IMG/VR virus record: IMGVR_UViG_3300027861_000006
Span: 1-38,629 of that record
From: a virus
Length of the DNA: 38,629 nt
Direction: 5' to 3' (one strand)
The notes under the pieces were generated by a model, which was not told where the DNA came from, searched no databases, and saw only the letters and a list, made by a program, of their open reading frames with translations. A program made the translations under genes and the position numbers. Positions within the stretch are counted from its first letter, which is position 1; the number at the start of each line of letters is the position of its first letter. Of this stretch, positions 2,630 through 37,853 are shown one piece after another.

Positions 2630-4241
2630 GCCTGTAGCTACCATTAATTCTATTGCAGACGCTATTTCAAAAGGTGTCGCAGAGGGTATTCAGAAAATGA
2701 AAGTTCCTGAATTTATACCTACAGGAGCTTTAGAACCAATGATTAAAGCTGTTGGGATGTTTATATGGGATATTGTTAATGCTCAGTGTGCAAATAAATT
2801 AGGCAAAACCACAATGGTAGTCAATATCCTCAGGAATATTTTTTGGGAACCTGACCTTGAATATTTTGATTACCCCGCCTTCCACGATTGGCCTTATAAG
2901 AATGTTGACGGTGAAATTATTAAGCATGGCCGTATTATCTGCACTGCTGAAAATGCTAAAGAAGATGGGCCTATTGATACCGAGATTAAGAAGTGGTGGC
3001 CTGAAGGTCGATACACAAGGATTAAAGATGGTAAAGGTTATTACTCTAAATACAAAACAGATACAGGTTGGAGCTTTGATATACTTACTTTTGAGCAGGA
3101 TGTAACAGCTTTTGAAGGACCTATGATGTCTTGGCAGTGGTGTGATGAGCCGCCTAAGCCAAAGCTAATGGGAGCGATAATGTCTCGTTTCTCAAAACAG
3201 GGTGTGCTAATGCTTTCCCAAACCCCAATTAATGCAGGTCCATTTATTGATAAATTAGAGGATCTAAAAGAAGTTGGGAGTAGAATAAAAAAGATTGAAG
3301 CTACTATTTACGATAATAGTTCTGAAAGTGGTATTATGAACTCCAAAGGAACTAAGCGTGGATTAATGACAGATGAAGAGATCGAGATATACAAAAGAAA
3401 AATTCCTCTTGATGAACACCCCGCACGTTTAGAAGGTAAAGCTATTGGTAAGAGTGGTAAGATCTACCCTACTTTTGATTTGAATGTGAATGTTAAGCAT
3501 TACGACCTAACCGCTGAAAGTACCAAGCAGTGGAACGGTTACTGCATAATGGATCCTCACGACAAATACTATCCATTCATACAATGGTGGGCTGTATTAC
3601 CCCCTAATGAGATCAACAAGTCGAGATTTGTTTGTTATAATGAATGGCCTACCGTAGAAACCCTTGGTGGCTATTATGACCAAAAGAGAAAAACCGCTGT
3701 TTGCAACTTAGGTCCTGAAGAGATTTCTAAAATAATAAAGCTATTTGACGGAACGCATTTTGGTATTGAGATTAAAAAAAGAGGCATTGACCCAAGGTTT
3801 GCAAGAAACACTGAAAGTAATTATACCAAAGCTGTCGAAGGTATCGTTATCGATTACCTAAAGTACGACATTGAATTTGAACTACCTGATTTGGGATTGA
3901 TTAGTATTGGAAGAAATGCCATAAGAAAAGATATTAAGTACGATAAAACAGCGCCGCTTAGCCTGTATAATGAACCTGACATGGTTATTATGCCACATTG
4001 CAAAAATACCATTCGTTCGTTAGACCGCCATTATTGGGAGAACAACGATAAAGGCACTGAGAAGGAAGCTGAAGAGTTTAAGGACCCTTCTGACTGCGCT
4101 AGAATGTTTAAGGCCTTAGAGGCTAACGTAGGGTGGACTCCTAATAGACCCCCCGTTAAGGTTGCCGATAAAAAGATGATAATTACCGAAAACATTAATG
4201 AGGAGTTTAATAAATCTATTGGGGAGATTGGGTTGGGTTAA
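2616..4241 (+). CDS. terL: Terminase large subunit
   Basis: Walker A-like NKLGKTT and Walker B-like WQWCDEPP. Acidic motifs in the C-terminal nuclease half (IMDPHD, KDPSDC). ATG 2616 overlaps the upstream stop. About 540 aa. Confidence 0.85.
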   Translation: MSNHKPVATINSIADAISKGVAEGIQKMKVPEFIPTGALEPMIKAVGMFIWDIVNAQCANKLGKTTMVVNILRNIFWEPDLEYFDYPAFHDWPYKNVDGEIIKHGRIICTAENAKEDGPIDTEIKKWWPEGRYTRIKDGKGYYSKYKTDTGWSFDILTFEQDVTAFEGPMMSWQWCDEPPKPKLMGAIMSRFSKQGVLMLSQTPINAGPFIDKLEDLKEVGSRIKKIEATIYDNSSESGIMNSKGTKRGLMTDEEIEIYKRKIPLDEHPARLEGKAIGKSGKIYPTFDLNVNVKHYDLTAESTKQWNGYCIMDPHDKYYPFIQWWAVLPPNEINKSRFVCYNEWPTVETLGGYYDQKRKTAVCNLGPEEISKIIKLFDGTHFGIEIKKRGIDPRFARNTESNYTKAVEGIVIDYLKYDIEFELPDLGLISIGRNAIRKDIKYDKTAPLSLYNEPDMVIMPHCKNTIRSLDRHYWENNDKGTEKEAEEFKDPSDCARMFKALEANVGWTPNRPPVKVADKKMIITENINEEFNKSIGEIGLG

Positions 4242-4401
4242 GATAGCTAAAACAAGATATACTAGTTTCTGATAACCTGCACTCGGACGATATTGCAAGA
4301 CAATAAAACTTATTGCAATACCCCCAATCATCATCTGTTTTAAATTTTTCAAAATACTTACATTGACCACATGGTTTAGTATTTAGGATTTTTTTACTCA
4401 C
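4216..4401 (-). CDS. Small Cys-rich hypothetical protein (PCGQCKYF..GYC)
   Basis: GTG start after a G-rich SD. Last gene of the leftward arm. Its 3' end overlaps the TerL 3' end convergently. Confidence 0.4.
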   Translation of the reverse strand: MSKKILNTKPCGQCKYFEKFKTDDDWGYCNKFYCLAISSECRLSETSISCFSYLNPTQSPQ

Positions 4402-7223: not shown

Positions 7224-7667
7224 TTAAAAAATGACTAACTTTTCTGCTTTCTCGTAAAAGATAACAATCTCTGCTGAGAAATTACCTTTTTCATAACCAC
7301 CGCCTAATTCAAGGATAGGCACTTCCTGCCAACAATCATCATGGATAATCTTATTGTCAACAAGAAGATCCATTATTGATTCAGCCTTATTAGTTAAATC
7401 TGTTTTACGCCTATCTCCAAAACTAAATTTAATAATAATTTTAGAGATGCTTTCAATAGCTCTACCTTTTCTTGGTTGAGACAATAACTCACTACTTGCT
7501 GACTTATGCCAATCTTTATGCTTAGACGAAGGTAATAGCCAAAACAGTTGCCCTTTAGGCTTGTGACCGCCTATCTTTATTCTAATGTTTTTCCAGTTAG
7601 GAATTATCTGCTTGGAATTTTTCTTAGATGGAATACGGCCTGTTAAGGTGTATCTGATTGACTCCAT
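7224..7667 (-). CDS. rusA: RusA-family Holliday-junction resolvase
   Basis: IPSKKNS aligns with E. coli RusA PPSNNRYY. DRRKTDLTNKAESIMDLLVDNKIIHDD aligns with [27 protein letters not shown] (recalled sequence). Confidence 0.8.
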   Translation of the reverse strand: MESIRYTLTGRIPSKKNSKQIIPNWKNIRIKIGGHKPKGQLFWLLPSSKHKDWHKSASSELLSQPRKGRAIESISKIIIKFSFGDRRKTDLTNKAESIMDLLVDNKIIHDDCWQEVPILELGGGYEKGNFSAEIVIFYEKAEKLVIF

Positions 7668-16198: not shown

Positions 16199-16243
16199 CT
16201 TAATTTCCTTTGTTATTGTTTGTTGCTCAATTCCTATACCAAT

Positions 16244-16272
16244 AAGATACCATAATTCTAAGCAAAAGTCAA
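16244..16272 (-). promoter_or_regulatory. Leftward sigma70-like promoter (TTGACT-17-TATCTT)
   Basis: -35 at 16267-16272 and -10 at 16244-16249 (minus strand), with an exact 17-nt spacer. Confidence 0.5.
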
Positions 16273-16299
16273 CACTTTTTATACAAAAAATGTAAATAA

Positions 16300-16328
16300 A
16301 TTATACAGTGTAGATAAGAGTAAGGCAA
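16300..16328 (-). promoter_or_regulatory. Second leftward sigma70-like promoter (TTGCCT-17-TATAAT)
   Basis: -35 at 16323-16328 and a consensus -10 at 16300-16305 (minus strand). Confidence 0.5.
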
Positions 16329-16363
16329 GAGCTTGAAAGTTTTTTTGAGAAAGTTTAACTTAT

Positions 16364-16405
16364 TTGGTGGGAATTGGTTATATTGTTATTACTTCTAAGT
16401 TGCGG
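16364..16405 (+). promoter_or_regulatory. Copy A of the conserved promoter-like element (TTGGTG-N8-TTATATTGTTATTAC) plus the downstream TAAGTTGCGG box
   Basis: Same architecture as copies at 14046-14079 (minus) and 17233-17285 (plus). Heads the rightward genes. Confidence 0.45.
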
Positions 16406-16532
16406 AACTAAAGAATCAAATTATTTATAGGGTTATTAGATATGTATACAGGCATCCGCAACGCCTTTGCATATTGAAAGCCCTTGTTATTAAGTTTGCG
16501 GGAGCTTTGTTATAAAAAATAAAAAACTATAC

Positions 16533-16563
16533 CTATCACTCGCCGTATTACATATAGTGATAG
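16533..16563. promoter_or_regulatory. Inverted repeat CTATCACT-N15-AGTGATAG in the leader of the first rightward gene
   Basis: Perfect 8-bp arms. Either an operator-like palindrome or a leader hairpin. Confidence 0.35.
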
Positions 16564-16608
16564 CGGTTGTTTTGGGGCTGTGTTCTACTTTGTTTATGGG
16601 GGTTTGAG

Positions 16609-16905
16609 ATGCTTGGAGGAATAGCTTACATTATTCATGGTGTTATAGTTGAGGCTAGTAAGGCCGTTGAGGAGGCTGAAAGGCAAGCCATCAGAGCAGC
16701 GGAGTCAAGGGAACATGCCTTTCAAAAAAAATGGGATAAACAGACTCAAGAACTTTCAAGGCCTATTGGTTATACTAGGCACATAAAGAAACAAGCAGAG
16801 ATTAAACTATTCGGCAAGCAATTGAACTTAACCAAAGAAGACACGGGTGAAAGAGGTCTTAAATATTATGAGTTGAAGGACTATTTGAAGGGGTTGGAGA
16901 GATGA
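16609..16905 (+). CDS. Hypothetical protein, first rightward gene (hydrophobic N-terminus, helical basic remainder)
   Basis: ATG 16609 lies after GGGGGTTTGAG. The upstream extension to 16567 lacks an RBS. Confidence 0.5.
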   Translation: MLGGIAYIIHGVIVEASKAVEEAERQAIRAAESREHAFQKKWDKQTQELSRPIGYTRHIKKQAEIKLFGKQLNLTKEDTGERGLKYYELKDYLKGLER

Positions 16906-16994
16906 ATAAGGTGAAATGTCCTAAATGTGGAAGTGAGAATGTTGAGAGTACATGCATCGGTAGGGTTTGTGATTGGGAGGCTGAATGCAATTAG
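16902..16994 (+). CDS. 30-aa zinc-ribbon peptide (CPKC ... C...C..C), not in the ORF track
   Basis: ATGA start/stop coupling with the upstream gene. The downstream ATG 16985 overlaps it. Confidence 0.35.
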   Translation: MNKVKCPKCGSENVESTCIGRVCDWEAECN

Positions 16995-17212
16995 TAATAA
17001 AAAGAAGTGAATTAATTCATTGCAAAGATAAGTCTGTGTATAACAACAATGTCTATTTGGTTGAGGGTATATATAAAATAAAAGAAGTTTGTGATGAGGA
17101 CTATAATTGTTGCACTTACTACTTGCTACATAACGATGAGTGGATTTTTATCGGATGTAGTGAGGATTATCTTGATGATATAAAGATTGACTTTTTGTTA
17201 ATGCACACCTAA
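16985..17212 (+). CDS. Hypothetical protein (75 aa)
   Basis: Last gene before the non-coding island. Confidence 0.5.
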   Translation: MQLVIKRSELIHCKDKSVYNNNVYLVEGIYKIKEVCDEDYNCCTYYLLHNDEWIFIGCSEDYLDDIKIDFLLMHT

Positions 17213-17232
17213 TTAATCTTTTCCCAACACTT

Positions 17233-17285
17233 GTTGGTTAAATTTGTTATATTAGTAATTACAAATAGATTAAGTTAAGCGCAAA
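17233..17285 (+). promoter_or_regulatory. Copy B of the conserved promoter-like element (TTGGTT-N7-TTATATTAGTAATTAC) plus a TAAGTTAAGCGG box
   Basis: Shares TTGGTk, TTATATT, GT.A.TAC and TAAGTT..GCGG with copies A and C. No ORF lies downstream. Confidence 0.4.
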
Positions 17286-17386
17286 TAAGAATTGAGAACT
17301 GGCGACTCAATCACTTAATCTTGAAAGGTTCTATATAGTAACAGGATAAGCTTAGAAACGTTCCTGAGAACCATAGAGCCTTTTTT
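17262..17386 (+). ncRNA. Candidate ~125-nt structured non-coding RNA or leader (two hairpin domains ending in U6)
   Basis: Domain 1: AGAUUAAGU (17266-74) pairs with ACUUAAUCU (17313-21), with an inner AUUGAG/CUCAAU stem. Domain 2: GGUUCU..CAGGA pairs with UCCUGAGAACC (17327-17372). T6 lies at 17381-86. Confidence 0.3.
17327..17386 (+). terminator. Possible conditional intrinsic terminator
   Basis: GGUUCUAU (17327-34) can pair with AUAGAGCC (17373-80; 8 bp, one G-U) directly before UUUUUU. Alternatively it pairs with the adjacent AGAACC (17367-72). Confidence 0.3.
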
Positions 17387-17405
17387 AATACCCTTTAAGC
17401 CCACT

Positions 17406-17414
17406 TGATATAAT
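17406..17414 (+). promoter_or_regulatory. Perfect extended -10 promoter element TGATATAAT
   Basis: Exact TGnTATAAT match about 20 nt after the U-run. Confidence 0.4.
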
Positions 17415-17470
17415 ACCAACCCAAATACACCACAGCACACCCAAGCCTATCCTAAACATCTCTAAACCCC

Positions 17471-17660
17471 TTTATATACTTATATATTATTATATATATA
17501 TTATATATAGTTATTTATTATTAATACTTAGTTATAGTGTTATTTATATATAATATCTAAATATTATTATTACGTTCATACATGCATATACAAGTACCTA
17601 TTGTAATTTTGTTTTTAGTTATTTTTAGTTAGTTTCTTATGTATTGTTTTAGATACTTTA
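17471..17660. other. About 190 bp of almost pure A/T; candidate DNA-unwinding element
   Basis: TATA-type runs and a tandem TTTTTAGTTA x2 at about 17612-17634. Very few G/C. Confidence 0.4.
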
Positions 17661-17665
17661 AGTGC

Positions 17666-17705
17666 AGATTGACCAGTGACAACACCAATAGGTGCCTGTC
17701 AATCT
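17666..17705. other. Hairpin AGATTGAC-N24-GTCAATCT (extendable with a bulge to GCAG/CTGC)
   Basis: Perfect 8-bp inverted repeat immediately after the AT block. Confidence 0.4.
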
Positions 17706-17739
17706 CACTGCATACAAATACCTATATGTCTATTAAGAA

Positions 17740-17748
17740 TGTGGATAA
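17740..17748 (+). promoter_or_regulatory. Perfect DnaA-box 9-mer (TGTGGATAA = complement of TTATCCACA)
   Basis: Exact match. Two one-mismatch copies in the same orientation lie at 17967-17975 (TGTTGATAA) and 17988-17996 (TGTGGATAC). Confidence 0.35.
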
Positions 17749-17806
17749 CTCCCAAAAATAGCGTCTGGATCAATTTAAGCACAAAAAGCGCTGGGAGGCA
17801 TTTAAT

Positions 17807-17923
17807 GTGAAAAAAGGCGTTATTGTGACAGTGGTTGGGTTTTTACTATGTTTTAGGCCATTATGCATGTCGCATAGTAACTATTATGTAAACTTTATTG
17901 CATTAATTGAAGATTTTAGTTGA
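17807..17923 (+). CDS. Possible 38-aa hydrophobic peptide inside the island
   Basis: GTG start 8 nt after GGGAGG. Translates as MKKGVIVTVVGFLLCFRPLCMSHSNYYVNFIALIEDFS. No other support. Confidence 0.2.
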   Translation: MKKGVIVTVVGFLLCFRPLCMSHSNYYVNFIALIEDFS

Positions 17924-17995
17924 TTTCTTGATGTTTTTGTATTAATTTAATTAATATAAATAAAATGTTGATAACTTGTTGGTATGTTGTGGATA

Positions 17996-18010
17996 CCCCC
18001 CCCCACCCCC
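17996..18010 (+). repeat. C9-A-C5 homopolymer tract (G-tracts on the minus strand), with a second CCCCAACCCC at 18051-18060
   Basis: Read directly. Stands out in an AT-rich genome. Confidence 0.9.
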
Positions 18011-18074
18011 AAAATTGAGGATGGAGGCTTAGGAAAAGTTTTGGACTAGTCCCCAACCCCGTAAGTATGAAAAC

Positions 18075-18350
18075 ATGAACATATGCAAAAAGGAGTATGG
18101 CATAGTGAAAAAAGAAAACACAAAAACTTTTAAAGACTTAATGTCTGAGTGTGAAAAGGCTCCTGAACCTCTTTATGTTTCGTATGAAGCGTTTCATGAT
18201 GATAAAACTTTTGAAGTGCGGGTGTATTTTATTTGTGGTGTTTACATAGCAATGTCGAATCACGAGGGTGGTGATTGTTGGGAAGATGAAGGTGCGTATT
18301 CATTTTTAGATTTCGATCTTTTTAAAAAAGATTTTGGGATAAAGGATTAA
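18075..18350 (+). CDS. Hypothetical protein; start may be GTG 18105 (9 nt after AAGGAG)
   Basis: First ORF after the island. Confidence 0.5.
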   Translation: MNICKKEYGIVKKENTKTFKDLMSECEKAPEPLYVSYEAFHDDKTFEVRVYFICGVYIAMSNHEGGDCWEDEGAYSFLDFDLFKKDFGIKD

Positions 18351-19290: not shown

Positions 19291-21138
19291 ATGTCATTTG
19301 ATATTACTGAAGATAATTTTAAGAAGCATGAAAAGGAGCTTACGGCTCTTTTGGCTGATCAACTTAACAGCTATTATAAGTCTAGTTGCTATAAGCGTCT
19401 CGAGGGGCGTTATTTTCGTTTAAAAGACTCTGTGGATATGAATTTTCATGGTAATGCTAATCGGAGTCGAAGTGTAAGTCGAACTAGAAATGCCTCTAAG
19501 AGTAGGATGAACTTTGCGTTAGTGAAACAACGGACTATTTTAAGAAGAGCGATTTTATCGCAGAATTCCCGGGGTGAACCTTTAGCGACAACTGAGCCTA
19601 TTGGTGCTACCACTATGGAAGCTGCAAACAACATTCAAGATGTTGTAAATATGAATTTAAAAAGTACTGAGTTTCGTGCAAAGGCTTTTTTAGCTATTAA
19701 AGACGACACTTCTGTGTTTGGTGCATCTGTGGCTTATACGTCATGGAGAGAGAGTTCAAAACAGGCTAAGAAGACAGTTGCGTCAAAGATAGGCCCTAGA
19801 AGAGAGCTTGTAAGGACCACTAAAAAGAATGCTGTTAATCATGCCATTAATGTTCTTGATTATTTTCAAGATCCAAAAGTTTCTGATCCTGACGATTCAG
19901 ATTATCAAGGTCACATAGAGAGAATTAACCTATCCAAACTTGTTGCTGCTGTAAAAATGAACCCTGAGGCTTATATTACTGCTAATGTTGAGCAGATAAT
20001 TGAAAGAGCTAAAAAGGAATCGATACAAGATAAGAATTACCATGATAAAACTGTGGACAGTTCTATTTCGAGTAAAAGGTTTGAGATAGATAGACAGATT
20101 TTTTATTCTACTTGCAATATTAAGGGAAATGAGGACAATAGTAATTTTTATTATGTTGAAATGATTGCAGGAAAAATTGTTCGCTTTCAAGAAAACCCTC
20201 ACGACAACGATATTCGACCTTATGCGGTATTTACTTTTTATCCACGAAGAGAAGTGTGGTGGGGTAATTCTGACGCTGAATTCGTACTACCTCACGAAAA
20301 ATATACTAACCTGATAATGGGTATGAAAGCTGATAAAGCACTTCAATCTCTTCAGAGCTACTTGTTTTATGAAAAAGGTACTATTGACGTAGCTGATTGG
20401 AATAATCGACATAAGAATGGTGGTTTTGTTGGAGTTAATACAGGCGGCAATCAAAATCTTTCTCAGTTATTGTACCAAGTGCAGCCACAAGATCAATCCT
20501 TAAACACTACTGACTCGATTATGAGAGAAGTTAAGGAGAATGAACAGAAACTTACTCCAAGACCTGACCTATCAAGGGCTGCTAAAAGCGGAGGTCTACA
20601 AAACACTACTGCTACTGCTGCAAATATCCTTGATGAACAGGGTGATGTTGTAGAATCAGAGATATTAGAGAACTTTACTTTCGGATTAAAACGATTAATT
20701 AGAAATAATGTGATTATTCTTCAACAGAGACTTTCAGACGAGTTTGCTATTAGGCCAAAACCTAACGAAGCACAAAGAAAATTGATGAAAGAGGAAATAT
20801 TAGGCGATGTTGATTACCATATTGAGACAAGTTTAAATAAAAACAAAGCTACTGAGCTGTTAAGGCTACAAAACCTAATTACAATGTTTATGAACTTCAA
20901 GGGTAGTGGTGATCCAGCATTAGCACAACTTGATTTAACAGGTATTTTCAAAAAATTACTAAAACAGGCTGATATTGGGGATGTAGACGAGTTATTTCCC
21001 ACTCAGCCACAACAAGAGTTGCCGGGCGCAGTGCCAAGTGACCCACAAGCTCCACAGGGGGCCGATTTAGGGCAGGCAGGCGCAGTACAGGAACTCACAC
21101 CACCCCAAACACAGGAAGGGGCTTTAAATGAGGCTTAG
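19291..21138 (+). CDS. Portal protein (candidate)
   Basis: 615 aa, first large virion gene. Followed by scaffold-like and capsid genes as in T7-type order. P/Q-rich disordered C-tail. Family not verified. Confidence 0.6.
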   Translation: MSFDITEDNFKKHEKELTALLADQLNSYYKSSCYKRLEGRYFRLKDSVDMNFHGNANRSRSVSRTRNASKSRMNFALVKQRTILRRAILSQNSRGEPLATTEPIGATTMEAANNIQDVVNMNLKSTEFRAKAFLAIKDDTSVFGASVAYTSWRESSKQAKKTVASKIGPRRELVRTTKKNAVNHAINVLDYFQDPKVSDPDDSDYQGHIERINLSKLVAAVKMNPEAYITANVEQIIERAKKESIQDKNYHDKTVDSSISSKRFEIDRQIFYSTCNIKGNEDNSNFYYVEMIAGKIVRFQENPHDNDIRPYAVFTFYPRREVWWGNSDAEFVLPHEKYTNLIMGMKADKALQSLQSYLFYEKGTIDVADWNNRHKNGGFVGVNTGGNQNLSQLLYQVQPQDQSLNTTDSIMREVKENEQKLTPRPDLSRAAKSGGLQNTTATAANILDEQGDVVESEILENFTFGLKRLIRNNVIILQQRLSDEFAIRPKPNEAQRKLMKEEILGDVDYHIETSLNKNKATELLRLQNLITMFMNFKGSGDPALAQLDLTGIFKKLLKQADIGDVDELFPTQPQQELPGAVPSDPQAPQGADLGQAGAVQELTPPQTQEGALNEA

Positions 21139-23030: not shown

Positions 23031-24227
23031 ATGGCAACTCAACAGACACCTTTTGTACCTCAAGACCCTTCGGCTACAGGGTTACAGGGAAGAACAGTAA
23101 ATGATGAAATTAGAAACCTTATTCCCGGCAACTCACCGCTATTAGAGCTTGTTGCAGTTGGTGTTGCGCAAGACGGTAAAGTGAAAAAATCAGCGGGAAT
23201 GATTAGTAAACAGGCTACAGATACAGTAAGATTTGAAGCTTTCACACATACACCACCTGGCTATCTTCAGACTGTTGCAACTAAAACAAGTGCTCTTGTT
23301 TATACGTTTGCAAGTGTTGCTGAAATTTATGTTAGAATGGTATTTGAAAATACTGCTAACAAAACCGTTGGTGTAGTTTCAGCTATTTCAAGTACAAGTG
23401 TTACTTTTACCTCTATTGGTTCAACTGCCTTTTCTGCTGTTGCAGGTGACGTTTTAATGCGTCTTGGTAACGCTTATGAAGCCAATTCAAGCGATCCTGC
23501 TTACTTGCAGAAAGACGATGATAACATTTACAATATGTGTCAGACTTTCCGTTTTCCAACAGCAGCTTCAAATTCACAGATTGCTACAAAACAGGTTGCA
23601 GGTGGAGATTTCTTTCAGAGAGCTTCTAAGTATGCAATGATTGAAGGTATGCGTGATATTGAAAGAGCGTTTCTTTTTGGTAAAAAATCTTCAAGTGGTA
23701 ATACTACTGAGATTAGTGATATTAGTAAAAACGTAGCGACTACTGAAGGTCTATGGAATCAGTCAGGTGTTGTATTTGATGCAGGTGGAAACATGACTCC
23801 GTCAAAGCTCTTTAAGGATATTCCAAACAAAATGGACTCTTCTGTAGGCGATATGGACCGTGTTATTATGCTGACTTCTAAGAAACAGCGTACTAACCTT
23901 CTTGAACAGCAGCAGGACAGTATTCGTATTGACCAAAAATCTGATCCTAAAGAATATGGTGTTAAAATCCCAATGTTTATGACAGGTGGACCAAACATTG
24001 AAATTCGTTCGCATGATGCGTTTAACAATGCAGGACACGAAGACGAAGGACTTATTTTCCTTCCTGAGCGTCTTAAATATCGTTACCTTAAAGGTAGAGA
24101 TATTGCACCAAACAAAGATATTCAGTCTAATTCTACTGATGGTAAAATTGACGAAATCTTTGGTGAAGTTGGATTGCAGAATGACGATGGTGGTGTGTCA
24201 ATAATGAGACTTATTAACATGTCTTAA
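23031..24227 (+). CDS. Major capsid protein (candidate)
   Basis: 398 aa. ATG lies 7 nt after AAGGAGG. Directly follows the scaffold-like gene and is followed by the clearest intrinsic terminator in the window. Confidence 0.7.
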   Translation: MATQQTPFVPQDPSATGLQGRTVNDEIRNLIPGNSPLLELVAVGVAQDGKVKKSAGMISKQATDTVRFEAFTHTPPGYLQTVATKTSALVYTFASVAEIYVRMVFENTANKTVGVVSAISSTSVTFTSIGSTAFSAVAGDVLMRLGNAYEANSSDPAYLQKDDDNIYNMCQTFRFPTAASNSQIATKQVAGGDFFQRASKYAMIEGMRDIERAFLFGKKSSSGNTTEISDISKNVATTEGLWNQSGVVFDAGGNMTPSKLFKDIPNKMDSSVGDMDRVIMLTSKKQRTNLLEQQQDSIRIDQKSDPKEYGVKIPMFMTGGPNIEIRSHDAFNNAGHEDEGLIFLPERLKYRYLKGRDIAPNKDIQSNSTDGKIDEIFGEVGLQNDDGGVSIMRLINMS

Positions 24228-33894: not shown

Positions 33895-35115
33895 ATGTCA
33901 CAAGCAAGTAGAGGGGCAGCATTAAGCTATATCGCCCAAGCAGTACCAAGGGTAACACAAGATGTTATTGGCAAGGTACAGGCAGGCAGAGACCGTAAAG
34001 AGGACATGAAGGATAAGGAACTTGAAAGAAAACTGTCTCAAGGCCGACTTGATGCAATGGGACGGCAAGCCACTATAGACGAGCAAAACATAGATACAGG
34101 CGATCGCAAAGCAGAGCAACGTAAAAAAGCATCTGACCTTAACACGAAAATTCAAGCCGACATTTTTGCAGAAGAAATAAAAGTTAATAAGAAAAAAGCT
34201 CTCGATACTGAGCTTGGAAAAATGTCGAAAGAGAAGCTGCAGGTTGAATATGGAGCGGACAATTTAGCGCAAGCCAAAGAATTAGCTTACACAGAAATCG
34301 ATCTGCCTACAGGTGCAACAAAAGAAGATATTGTTAAAAAGTATCGCAATGAAATAGAAGCGCTACAATTTACTGACCCTACTATGCAAGGGCGTATGGC
34401 AGGGATAACCCAAAGGACCAAGAGGGCAGAAAAAAAGGAAGATATTGAAGGTGAAAAATTATTTAGTCAGGGTGAAGGTGCGGTTGATTATGCTAGATCT
34501 GTAGAGTCTCGAGAGGATAAGCAAGAGTTTGAGAGTAGTCAACTGAATAAACGACTTTCTGCACAAGAGAGAATGAAAAAGATAACCAGTGGAGAAGCTG
34601 ACGCTGAAACTAGCGACATACCAGATTTAAAGCCGATTAGTAATATTGCCATTACAAAAGATTCTGTTAAGAGGGTAAAAGAGGCTTATCCTATGATTAA
34701 AGGTGTCTCAAACGAGATCAACGGGCTAAAAGACCTGTACAACAAGGTAGGGATTGAATTAGTTGGTGCTGATGCTGCAAGGTTAAAGTCAAAAGTAAGG
34801 AAAATTCAGCTACAGTTGAAATCGAAAGCCTTTCTCGACCTTGGTGTTCTTAACGGTCCCGATTTAGACTTGCTTGAAGAGGTAGTGCCTGATCCATCAA
34901 CCTTGAAAGCAGGCGCAAAAAAAGCAGCTTTCGGAAAAGTGTTTGAAGGGCAGTTAGGCGAGCTACTTGATTTTGTCGACAGTAGGGGCGAGATGTTCTA
35001 CAGAGCAAATGGTTTTGAGGCTGACAACAAAGGTGTTACGGGGCAAGCGTTCAACTCTACGCCTGTTCAATCAGGAATGTCAGATGATGATTTCAACGCA
35101 GCGTGGGGAGAATAA
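33895..35115 (+). CDS. K/E-rich helical 406-aa protein; internal virion protein candidate
   Basis: Position and composition only. Confidence 0.5.
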   Translation: MSQASRGAALSYIAQAVPRVTQDVIGKVQAGRDRKEDMKDKELERKLSQGRLDAMGRQATIDEQNIDTGDRKAEQRKKASDLNTKIQADIFAEEIKVNKKKALDTELGKMSKEKLQVEYGADNLAQAKELAYTEIDLPTGATKEDIVKKYRNEIEALQFTDPTMQGRMAGITQRTKRAEKKEDIEGEKLFSQGEGAVDYARSVESREDKQEFESSQLNKRLSAQERMKKITSGEADAETSDIPDLKPISNIAITKDSVKRVKEAYPMIKGVSNEINGLKDLYNKVGIELVGADAARLKSKVRKIQLQLKSKAFLDLGVLNGPDLDLLEEVVPDPSTLKAGAKKAAFGKVFEGQLGELLDFVDSRGEMFYRANGFEADNKGVTGQAFNSTPVQSGMSDDDFNAAWGE

Positions 35116-35117
35116 CA

Positions 35118-37853
35118 ATGCCTACACAGCAAGAATTTATTGCAAAAGCTAAACAAATGGGTAAAAGTAAAGAGGAAACTCTTGCTAAAATGCGTGAGCT
35201 GGAAGGTAGAGGGTATTTTGATACCCCCGAACCCCAAGACCTAACCCCCGAACCTATTGAGCGTGAAGAGTCTGTACCATTGGTAAAGCAGGCTATTAGT
35301 GCAATTAGCAAAGGTGCTACTGCTACAGGTAAGTTTTTAGGCGGCTCTATCGCTCACCCAATCGAAACAAGTAAAGGGCTTGTAAAAGGCATAGGTGAAG
35401 CAGGAGTTGGCGATATTGGGCGGGGTACTGCTGCAATGCTAGGCTCGGTTATACCCGGTGAAGATCGTTTTGAAAAAAGAGCAAGAGATTATAAAGACAA
35501 AGAGTTTTTTCCTGCAAGTGGTGAAGTTCAAGAAAGAGCGAAGCCTGTAGGTCAATTTGGCGCTAAAATGGGTGCAGGTGCTGCATTAGCCTCTACCTTA
35601 CCCGCAACTGCCCCCGCTGCCGCTGTAGCTTTGGGCGGTGGAGCATTGGCGAATGTTCCGTTTTTACCTCAAGCTTTTACAGAAGGTGGTGCAGAGGGCG
35701 CAATTAAAGACATTGCATTAAACACAGCTATCGATTTAGCCACTTTTGGAGCAGGAAAAGCTATTCCGGGGATTAAAGCTGCTTTACTTAAAAAAGGCGT
35801 AAAAGGGCTTGAAGCTGATAGGATTGCAAAAGAGGCTTTTGAAAGAGCCACAAAATTACCAAGTGCAAAAACGGTAAAAACCACCGCTGGAAAGGGTTTT
35901 AAGCTAGCACCTGACACCCCTGTTAAAGATGGTGTAGAGCAAGTTGGAGAGGATATTTTAAAGAGTTCAGCACCCGAGAAAACCCTTGGAGAAAAGACAT
36001 TAGGTCGCATCTCCGAGTCAGACAGGTCTATTTTATCAGAGCCATTATTAAAAACTGAAACACCGTATAATGAATATGCTCAACTAGCAGAGTCAGCCGT
36101 TAAAAACCCTAGAAACCCAACCCCAATGGATGTCGCGGGTCGTAGAGGTTCAGAGGCTCTTGATATAATTGACGAGAAACTATCCTCTGTTGGCGCTAGA
36201 AAGCAAGAGCTAATGGATAGGGCGGTGAATAAGACTATTAATGTTGAATCTACCCAAAAGCGTTTTAATGACTTAATTGAGGACAGGTTGGGCTTAGAAG
36301 TAACCGAAAAGGGCGCTTTAAAAGGGGCGGGTCGTGCGCCAACCGAAAAGAAACTTATAGAAGAGGTTAATGACCTTTTAAGGTCTGTAAAAGGCGAGGT
36401 AACTATAAAGGATGCCGATAATATCAAGGCAGCATTAAGAGACATTGTAGACGCTCCTAAGTCGTTTCAAGTACAGCCTAGAAAAACTATAACCGAGTCC
36501 ATTGTAAATACTGTTAGAAAAGATATTGATGATAAACTTATTCAACAAATTGGCCCTGAATTTAGAAAGGTAAATAAGGAATATGCTGACGCTATTGATT
36601 TAAGTAGTTTTCTGAATAAGAAATTAGGGGCTGTTACTGACAAAGGCACAGGTCAGAGGATAATGGGTGCTTCTCTTCTTAAATCATCTCTACAAAGTAA
36701 CTCAGATAGAGGTTCTAAGGCTTTATTTGACAGAGTAAAAAAAGAGACAGGTATTGACCTTATAAAAGATGCTAAATATGCGGAAATAGCTATGCAGGCG
36801 GTGGGTGATGCTAGAATTAAGAATTTACTTGAAGAGGTTGGGGTTAAGTTACCGGGTAAAGCGGGGGCTATACAAGAGTTAGGTTCAAAAGCTTTAGATA
36901 TAGCAAGACCCGACAGGTTAAGTGAAACCGTTAAGTTTTTCAATAAACAACAGCAAAAGCGTAGCGGAGATGTGTTGGGAAAAGCTGCTTTGCCTGCTCC
37001 TCCACCTTTTAGGCTTCCTAATCCACTTGGGAACCAGAGGGGGGCTGTTGATATTGGGACTAATATTAAAAATATTGAGAGAGAGGCAAAAAAATTCAAG
37101 ACGCCAAGAGAGTTTATTAATGCACAAAAAAAAGACTTTCATGGTACTAGTCAGAAGTTTGATATTTTTGATGCTAGTCAGCTAAATAAATCAACAAACA
37201 CTTTAGCAGGCAAAGAAGGGTTTTGGTTTACCAGTTCGGCAAAAGAGGCAGGTGATTATGCGCAGCTCTCAGGAAAGAGACTAGCTAAAGACGAAGTTGC
37301 CTTTGAGGCAATGAGTAAAAGGTTAGCAAAATCCCTAGAAAATGCAGAAAAGGCAAGGGATTTTGATCTTGTAGATAATATTACTGCTCAAATAGAAAAG
37401 CATGAGGCATCCTTGTTTTTAGAAAAACCAGAGAGTTTTGTAAAAGATGCTTTTCTTGTAACTAAAAAGCCTAAAATTGTTAATATGGATGGTAAAAACA
37501 GCACGCAGGGAGCTTTGTCTGAAATAATATCTAAAGCAAAAAAAGGGGGGCATGATAGTGTTGTTTTTAAAAACATATCAGATAATCCAGTAGATGCAAG
37601 AGTTAAAACTGACCAAACAATAGTGTTTTCTCCTGACCAAATTAAAACGGAAAAAGAACTGTCAGATATTTGGAACAATGCTCAACGCACAGGAAGCGCA
37701 GGTAACATAAGAATGAACGCAATGCTCCCCGCAACAGGATTAGCAGGAGCAGGAGTACTAACAGCAGGGCTCAAAGTCGAACAAGGCAAGAAAAAGCAAC
37801 AATTAACAAGAGAACAAATGCAGAAACTAGCGCAATCAAGAAGAGGTAATTAA
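35118..37853 (+). CDS. Large (911-aa) ejection/internal-core-type protein with a C-terminal ART-like domain
   Basis: ATG 35118 after GGGGAG. Largest gene, in the gp16-like position. A/G-rich hydrophobic patches. C-terminal FHGT...FDIFD ... GFWFTSS..A.DYA ... GHDSVVF ... TIVFSPDQIK. Confidence 0.6.
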   Translation: MPTQQEFIAKAKQMGKSKEETLAKMRELEGRGYFDTPEPQDLTPEPIEREESVPLVKQAISAISKGATATGKFLGGSIAHPIETSKGLVKGIGEAGVGDIGRGTAAMLGSVIPGEDRFEKRARDYKDKEFFPASGEVQERAKPVGQFGAKMGAGAALASTLPATAPAAAVALGGGALANVPFLPQAFTEGGAEGAIKDIALNTAIDLATFGAGKAIPGIKAALLKKGVKGLEADRIAKEAFERATKLPSAKTVKTTAGKGFKLAPDTPVKDGVEQVGEDILKSSAPEKTLGEKTLGRISESDRSILSEPLLKTETPYNEYAQLAESAVKNPRNPTPMDVAGRRGSEALDIIDEKLSSVGARKQELMDRAVNKTINVESTQKRFNDLIEDRLGLEVTEKGALKGAGRAPTEKKLIEEVNDLLRSVKGEVTIKDADNIKAALRDIVDAPKSFQVQPRKTITESIVNTVRKDIDDKLIQQIGPEFRKVNKEYADAIDLSSFLNKKLGAVTDKGTGQRIMGASLLKSSLQSNSDRGSKALFDRVKKETGIDLIKDAKYAEIAMQAVGDARIKNLLEEVGVKLPGKAGAIQELGSKALDIARPDRLSETVKFFNKQQQKRSGDVLGKAALPAPPPFRLPNPLGNQRGAVDIGTNIKNIEREAKKFKTPREFINAQKKDFHGTSQKFDIFDASQLNKSTNTLAGKEGFWFTSSAKEAGDYAQLSGKRLAKDEVAFEAMSKRLAKSLENAEKARDFDLVDNITAQIEKHEASLFLEKPESFVKDAFLVTKKPKIVNMDGKNSTQGALSEIISKAKKGGHDSVVFKNISDNPVDARVKTDQTIVFSPDQIKTEKELSDIWNNAQRTGSAGNIRMNAMLPATGLAGAGVLTAGLKVEQGKKKQQLTREQMQKLAQSRRGN

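Follow-up and report, generated by a model that had tools for sequence, protein, structure and literature searches.

Terminator boundary of a variable early cassette, with a possible orphan small RNA, as the favored reading of a structured element in an uncultivated podophage

The element at positions 17241 to 17386 is interpreted here, with moderate confidence, as the terminator boundary of a variable early gene cassette that may also yield an orphan early small RNA, and not as an attenuator. The window, i.e., the stretch of DNA that was analyzed, is 38,629 nt long and covers an entire metagenomic contig that represents an uncultivated podophage. In the mechanism that we propose, the element would be the right edge of a small early-right cassette of variable content (16355-17386) in this 38.6-kb SU10-like podophage, and a strong terminator (17323-17386) would stop rightward early transcription before the origin-like region that precedes the late genes. 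A duplicate of the cassette promoter (element B, 17241-17262) would allow the host RNA polymerase to start a noncoding RNA of ~125 nt that consists of hairpin 1 and the terminator hairpin, and the transcripts from the cassette promoter itself (promoter A) would share their 3′ end with this RNA. We infer that promoter B fires, that termination is efficient, and that the region downstream has an origin or late-control role, as well as that the body of the RNA has no sequence-specific function other than as a by-product of early transcription or as an orphan small RNA.

Genome context and the early-right cassette

The contig encodes an SU10-type portal protein (19291-21138) and a major capsid protein (23031-24227), while DnaB, RecT, and a DnaD/O-like initiator are encoded on the minus strand. 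Among isolated phages, near and distant searches of INPHARED, together with tblastn, revealed no relative of the window, either by DNA or by portal protein. The matches of the capsid protein were 23 to 26% identical at most and those of DnaB up to 37% identical; tblastn with DnaB and the capsid protein produced 37% identity only, to human-fecal phage fragments and P1 Ban. ARAGORN detected no tRNA and no tmRNA in the window. A late protein of 916 amino acids (35103-37853) contains an ART-PolyVal ADP-ribosyltransferase domain and is possibly an ejected effector.

From approximately position 16200, early genes extend leftward. A rightward early cassette on the plus strand, which comprises promoter A (16355-16392) and three open reading frames (ORFs; 16609-16905, 16902-16994, and 16985-17212), runs towards the element at 17241-17386. 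After these ORFs, there are ~860 nt without a credible ORF, and the late operon begins at 18075. The first rightward ORF is separated from promoter A by a 215-nt leader (16393-16608), which is highly structured, with −48 kcal/mol over 228 nt, and holds an 8-bp hairpin, CTATCACT/AGTGATAG, at ~16533-16563.

The terminator at 17323-17386

The 3′ domain of the element, on the plus strand, is a canonical Rho-independent terminator, as judged from sequence and folding. Its basal 12-bp stem is formed by GAAAGGUUCUAU (17323-34) and AUAGAGCCUUUU (17373-84), its apical stem by CAGGA (17342-46) and UCCUG (17362-66), and the hairpin is followed by a run of six U residues (17381-86). The composite stem of GGUUCU (17327-32) and CAGGA that was proposed in the initial annotation, with UCCUG opposite, is found where it had been described, and so is AUAGAGCC (17373-80), which abuts the U6 run and forms a terminator hairpin beyond chance. 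The domain folds with an energy of −18.6 kcal/mol (z = −4.06), none of 500 shuffled sequences being as stable, and in the full-length ensemble the pair probabilities of the terminator are 0.76 to 1.0.

In a crude genome-wide scan for hairpins followed by T-runs, this terminator ranks third and is the only one of the top sites that is both intergenic and located downstream of co-oriented genes, namely, the plus-strand ORFs at 16609-17212. No obvious intrinsic terminator was found at the convergent junction of the late and early-left genes (4241-4370), so that 17323-17386 is the one clear canonical intergenic terminator of this genome. As with other intrinsic terminators at phage operon boundaries, it has a G/C-containing stem that directly precedes U6 and is flanked by a short A-tract, it is intergenic and follows co-oriented genes, it is far more stable than its shuffled versions, and its position is kept in those relatives that have the upstream cassette. 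In contrast to the usual intrinsic terminators, its hairpin is unusually long (62 nt): above the 12-bp base lie a large internal loop and a 5-bp apical stem that is capped by a loop of 15 nt. The loop of the hairpin also holds a second partner of the 5′ strand.

Conservation in related contigs

Eight related contigs were reached through portal homologues. The closest of these, L003, has a portal protein that is 72% identical, and blastn of the window against it shows homology at 16236-16346 and then at 17380-18095, the cassette in between being unrelated. The right-hand block of homology, with 69% identity over 757 nt, starts exactly at 17380, at the U-tract of the terminator. In L003, two tiny rightward ORFs are followed by a small hairpin and then a simple terminator, and no promoter is found there; L179 has a plain terminator at the same position; and L001 has an analogous unit, which consists of a TATATT motif, a 55-nt hairpin ~20 nt further on, and a 12-bp A/U-flanked terminator. 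Each of these three contigs has rightward early ORFs, and in each of them an intrinsic terminator at this position closes the series. L002 and L004 have neither the rightward cassette nor a terminator and retain all downstream blocks along with the portal/capsid late operon. The terminator is kept while the RNA body and its proposed switch are not, and the conserved feature is therefore the terminator that ends a variable cassette.

The presence of an analogous unit in L001 hints that the RNA body may nevertheless be selected; the alignment of this unit with the element in the window shows similarity that is not significant (p ~0.07). Searching the L001 analogue against Rfam found only a tRNA-Ser. 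This tRNA gene (anticodon UGA; L001 positions 7511-7592) lies inside the variable early-right cassette of that contig, which points to the cassette as a hotspot for accessory cargo.

Just one further copy of the RNA was found, and it is 100% identical; a protein search with the adjacent 75-amino-acid ORF had as its sole match an identical copy of the same phage. No further relative carrying the RNA was detected in IMG/VR, searched by portal protein and by a 25-mer, or in INPHARED, to which close, distant, and tblastn searches were applied. With a conserved 17-mer and a poly-C box (both described below) as patterns, scans of IMG/VR, JGI metagenomes, and GTDB genomes returned ~400 loci, none of which proved to be a new relative after filtering by blastn and tblastn.

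Promoter-like element B and the predicted RNA

Promoter-like element B (AATTTGTTATATTAGTAATTAC; 17241-17262, plus strand) has an extended −10 motif, TGtTATATT, with TG at 17245-46 and TATATT at 17248-53, but no good −35 motif, and its predicted start is at ~17260-62. It is a near-copy of the core of promoter A (AATTGGTTATATT-GTTATTAC; 16372-16392, plus strand), the early rightward cassette promoter, which is located in the divergent intergenic region and appears in the promoter scan as TTAACT-18-TATATT (16355-16384). In a local alignment, B and A are identical at 19 of 22 positions, which span the −10 motif and the first transcribed bases, and equally good alignments were seen in 3 of 1,000 shuffles (p ~0.003). 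A fuzzy search of the genome found A and B as the only two copies of the core, and the early-right promoter of L003 likewise contains the core AATTGATTATATTAGTA. Element B was not called by a generic sigma-70 scan because it has no −35 motif. The matches in that scan are not enriched in the genome (65 found versus 63.9 expected from shuffles), and the scan therefore carries no weight here. On balance, the sequence evidence leans towards B being a real early promoter; the 22-nt repeat shared by A and B could be an operator instead.

Given that B is a near-copy of an early promoter, an early RNA of ~125 nt is plausible. The initial annotation described B as having no ORF downstream, and indeed all plus-strand frames run into stop codons within a few codons; the predicted RNA contains no open frame and no start codon with a Shine-Dalgarno motif. 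Its structured RNA of ~125 nt can be retained as a reasonable prediction, with a promoter-like element, two hairpin domains, and a U-tract terminator, whereas the switch that was assigned to it is unsupported.

A competing explanation, unlikely but deserving serious attention, holds that no independent transcript is made. Element B would then be inactive, perhaps as an operator shared with A, and positions 17213-17386 would be the structured 3′ untranslated region (3′ UTR) and terminator of the promoter A operon (ORFs at 16609-17212). The absent −35 motif, with which B escaped the generic scan, fits this explanation, and so does the site between the last ORF and B. Twelve nucleotides past the stop codon of the ORF at 16985-17212, the terminator scan found a small plus-strand hairpin, CCAACACUUGUUGG, followed by a U-rich stretch (17224-17237). 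With a stem energy of only −4.4 kcal/mol, it is predicted to be a weak terminator at best, and transcripts from promoter A should therefore run through to 17386. L003, moreover, has its hairpin and terminator directly after the last ORF with no promoter, and small RNAs derived from 3′ UTRs are documented in lytic phages (PMC10914365). What speaks against an inactive B is the 22-nt identity to promoter A, which includes the −10 motif and the first transcribed bases, the extended TGn motif at the −10 of B, and the fact that L001, too, has TATATT ~20 nt before its hairpin. The reading with a separate promoter B transcript remains the one that we favor.

When the segment at 17262-17386 was folded, its minimum free energy (MFE) was −28.0 kcal/mol (z = −2.8 to −2.9), and this significance comes from the 3′ domain, the terminator. 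Hairpin 1 (17267-17321, plus strand) has a 9-bp outer stem formed by AGAUUAAGU (17267-75) and ACUUAAUCU (17313-21), which encloses a 6-bp inner stem of AUUGAG (17291-96) and CUCAAU (17306-11), as seen in the sequence and by folding. The 9-bp stem had been noted previously, although with the 5′ arm misplaced by 1 nt (at 17266-74), and the 6-bp stem inside it was correctly recognized. The energy of hairpin 1 is −9.4 kcal/mol (z = −1.59), 37 of 500 shuffles are as stable, and the outer-stem pair probabilities are 0.84 to 1.0; hairpin 1 is not distinguishable from shuffled sequence. Stability above that of shuffled controls is thus seen for the terminator domain but neither for hairpin 1 nor for the anti-terminator conformer. 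A search of Rfam with the whole window at the gathering threshold and with 16900-18200 at an E value of ≤10 returned only a chance match to a snoRNA.

The oop and 6S RNAs of phage lambda are short RNAs that extend from a promoter to a terminator. With these and with the noncoding RNAs of Pseudomonas phages, the predicted RNA shares its length of ~125 nt, the lack of an ORF, a promoter-like element of its own, a 3′ end at a terminator, and a location in an early/regulatory region that adjoins an origin-like region. Unlike oop, it has no antisense gene partner, and unlike 6S, it has no Q-type partner and no contiguous late operon. It also differs from phage noncoding RNAs in that it is homologous to no Rfam family, either in sequence or in structure. 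Short noncoding RNAs of the promoter-to-terminator and UTR-derived kinds are common in lytic phages, the candidates from Pseudomonas phages being an example (PMC10914365).

Antisense and packaging RNA readings

The RNA could also be a functional small RNA that acts as an antisense in trans or in cis, including as an antitoxin-like partner of a convergent minus-strand gene for a hydrophobic peptide, with the hairpin shared as a bidirectional terminator. This idea, which is modeled on the type I toxin-antitoxin pairs of Bacillus, appears to us highly improbable. It draws on a minus-strand ORF for a hydrophobic peptide of 24 amino acids (MFRIGLGVLWCIWVGIISSGLKGY; 17459 to 17385) whose end coincides exactly with the terminator and which has a Shine-Dalgarno-like GGGG motif. 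The corresponding frame is open in L003, with WCIWV and SGLxGY* retained; the hairpin also folds on the minus strand (−18.9 kcal/mol), and L001 has its analogous RNA unit. However, a stop codon interrupts the frame in L001, no such frame is recognizable in L004 and L002, hydrophobic peptides arise from G/T-rich DNA by composition alone, and the tail of the hairpin on the minus strand is only UUUC. Being open in L003 but broken in L001, the 24-amino-acid frame is therefore probably a by-product of the G/T-rich composition. A genome-wide scan for RNA duplexes found no outstanding target, its sole outlier being the RNA's own antisense, and the RNA body shows no conservation in the relatives. A type I toxin-antitoxin pair was rejected, as the peptide frame is not conserved in the relatives.

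The RNA was also compared with the packaging RNA (pRNA) of phi29, and this candidate was rejected. The fold consists of two independent hairpins, not of a helix A and a three-way junction with complementary CE and D loops. There was no match to pRNA in Rfam at an E value of ≤10, and the phage encodes DnaB and RecT instead of a replication module like that of phi29.

The proposed terminator/anti-terminator switch

The initial annotation pointed out that the 5′ strand of the terminator has two adjacent partners, AGAACC (17367-72) and AUAGAGCC, and both are present where it placed them. AGAACC, on the plus strand and contiguous with UCCUG, is an alternative partner of GGUUCU (17327-32) that can pair with it only before 17373-84 has been transcribed. 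In a truncated RNA (17322-17372), the conformer with GGUUCU:AGAACC is the MFE structure, at −10.0 kcal/mol (z = −1.68), and 33 of 500 shuffles are as stable. A comparison of the two conformers by folding turned out against a balanced switch: in the same 65-nt sequence, the alternative conformer has −11.3 kcal/mol versus −18.6 kcal/mol for the terminator, a gap of 7.3 kcal/mol (8.6 kcal/mol relative to the truncated fold). The terminator is thus more stable by 7 to 9 kcal/mol and takes essentially the whole ensemble, the GGUUCU:AGAACC pairs having a probability of ~0 in the full-length RNA. Shuffling of the loop interior, with the terminator strands held constant, gave equal or better sequestration of the 5′ strand in 166 of 2,000 cases (p ~0.08); the alternative pairing is within chance. 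The barrier for refolding from the alternative conformer to the terminator was estimated at ~8 kcal/mol, which is too high to be neglected on the time scale of termination; some kinetic leakiness is therefore possible, and the alternative conformer may, judging from these models, interfere transiently with termination, although there is no sign that such interference is regulated.

From the layout of the two partners, the initial annotation derived an attenuator or processive-antitermination element. In such a scheme, which would be comparable to lambda PR′-tR′/Q or to HK022 put, the GGUUCU:AGAACC helix, or a factor that stabilizes it, would block the terminator, and at late times of infection, transcription from promoter B would then continue into the origin region and the late genes. 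We regard this scheme as very unlikely. Several features are compatible with it: the alternative helix consists of six exact Watson-Crick pairs, directly adjoins the inner stem, and is the first to form during transcription; it is separated from the terminator fold by the ~8-kcal/mol barrier; and a promoter, a short RNA, and a terminator upstream of a late operon resemble the layout of lambda 6S RNA. These are outweighed by the preference for the terminator in the folding, with alternative pairs of near-zero probability and at chance level, and by the lack of a sensor, of a controlled gene, and of the switch in the relatives. No aptamer was found in Rfam, either at the gathering threshold or at an E value of ≤10, and no leader peptide was found in the RNA. 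The ORFs at 16609-17212 match no antiterminator family in Pfam or PHROG and show no Q-, N-, or LoaP-like match; a very divergent antitermination factor may be among these adjacent ORFs. The element was said to lie just before the late genes, but the next plus-strand ORF starts at 18075, and ~690 nt of conserved noncoding DNA, with another promoter-like site, separate it from the terminator. Furthermore, the element is missing in relatives whose late genes are the same, and the alternative pairings of the L001 analogue are two registers of a terminator (−36.1 and −33.8 kcal/mol), with no terminator/anti-terminator pair.

The comparison with known systems is similar. As in terminator/anti-terminator attenuators and riboswitch expression platforms, one terminator strand has two mutually exclusive partners. 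Here, however, the partner that competes is located within the loop of the terminator, is 7 to 9 kcal/mol weaker, and is at chance level, and there is no aptamer, leader peptide, T-box, or protein- or tRNA-binding domain, and no regulated gene directly downstream. HK022 putL and putR and lambda nut likewise have two stem-loops shortly after a phage promoter, but in the present case the second stem-loop is itself the terminator, there is no family match, and the element is absent in relatives that keep the same downstream operon. Riboswitch and tRNA-like readings were rejected, the features that define them being absent.

GGUUCU:AGAACC is best read, based on the folding models, as a transient cotranscriptional intermediate of a long imperfect terminator hairpin and not as a regulated anti-terminator. 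A more elaborate proposal, to which we give very little credence, is that AGAACC serves as a decoy in the loop that makes the terminator kinetically tuned and deliberately leaky, metering early transcription from A and B into the DnaA-box/AT-rich region, for origin activation, or into the late operon. The ~125-nt product would then be a functional early small RNA, and the L001 unit, at the corresponding site, would be an independently evolved analogue.

The noncoding region between the terminator and the late genes

The favored reading, a terminator that ends the variable cassette, places the element at the edge of a conserved noncoding region (17387-18074) that extends to the first late ORF. 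This region starts with a G-poor C/A block (17387-17470; 4 G residues in 84 nt) and an A+T block of 105 nt (17471-17575; 91% A+T). Three DnaA boxes follow within 260 nt, a perfect one at 17740-48, the only one in the genome, and two with one mismatch each (17966-74 and 17988-96). A strong, separate promoter-like site on the plus strand, TTAATA-18-TGaTATAAT (17385-17414), begins within the U-tract of the terminator and points to the origin-like region; it has 10 of 12 matches and an extended −10, which is not conserved in L001 or L003.

A palindrome-containing box, ATAGTAACTATTATGTAAACTT (17872-17895), is conserved in L001, L003, and L004. Its 17-mer alone pulled ~170 unrelated contigs, ~8 to 10 of which share an upstream ATAAT, forming the palindrome ATAATA-AC-TATTAT, as well as GTAAACTT; the contigs with this palindrome include L046, L170, L012/L059, L024, and L175. 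Judging from this distribution in sequence data, the box may serve as an operator or promoter-type site that is widespread in phages. A poly-C box (CCCCCCCCCACCCCC-AAAATT), which is followed by ACTAGTCCCCAACCCC and ATGAAAACATG (17996-18080), immediately precedes the first late ORF and is conserved in L001 to L004 and L007. Possible roles of this box are those of a late promoter, a leader, or a packaging signal.

In all relatives, a noncoding hub of 0.7 to 1.4 kb is found between the early and late genes: at 17387-18074 in the window, 8210-8930 in L001, 1368-2100 in L003, 900-1690 in L004, and 7150-8520 in L002. Its order comprises a G-poor C/A block with CTAAAC-like repeats, an A+T block of ~100 nt with ~90% A+T, a GGTACCTATT-like motif, DnaA boxes, and other conserved blocks; apart from the DnaA boxes and the poly-C box, the blocks were recognized in the relatives by eye. 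From these sequence features, the hub is probably an origin, terminus, and late-control region.

Implications

If correct, the favored interpretation would be mainly an aid to annotation, as it shows where a hypervariable early cassette ends in a lineage of uncultivated SU10-like podophages with genomes of ~38 to 44 kb and adds one candidate to the orphan small RNAs. The element would acquire greater weight only if there were regulated read-through into the origin-like region. The more informative biology of these phages probably resides in the adjoining conserved noncoding hub of 690 nt.
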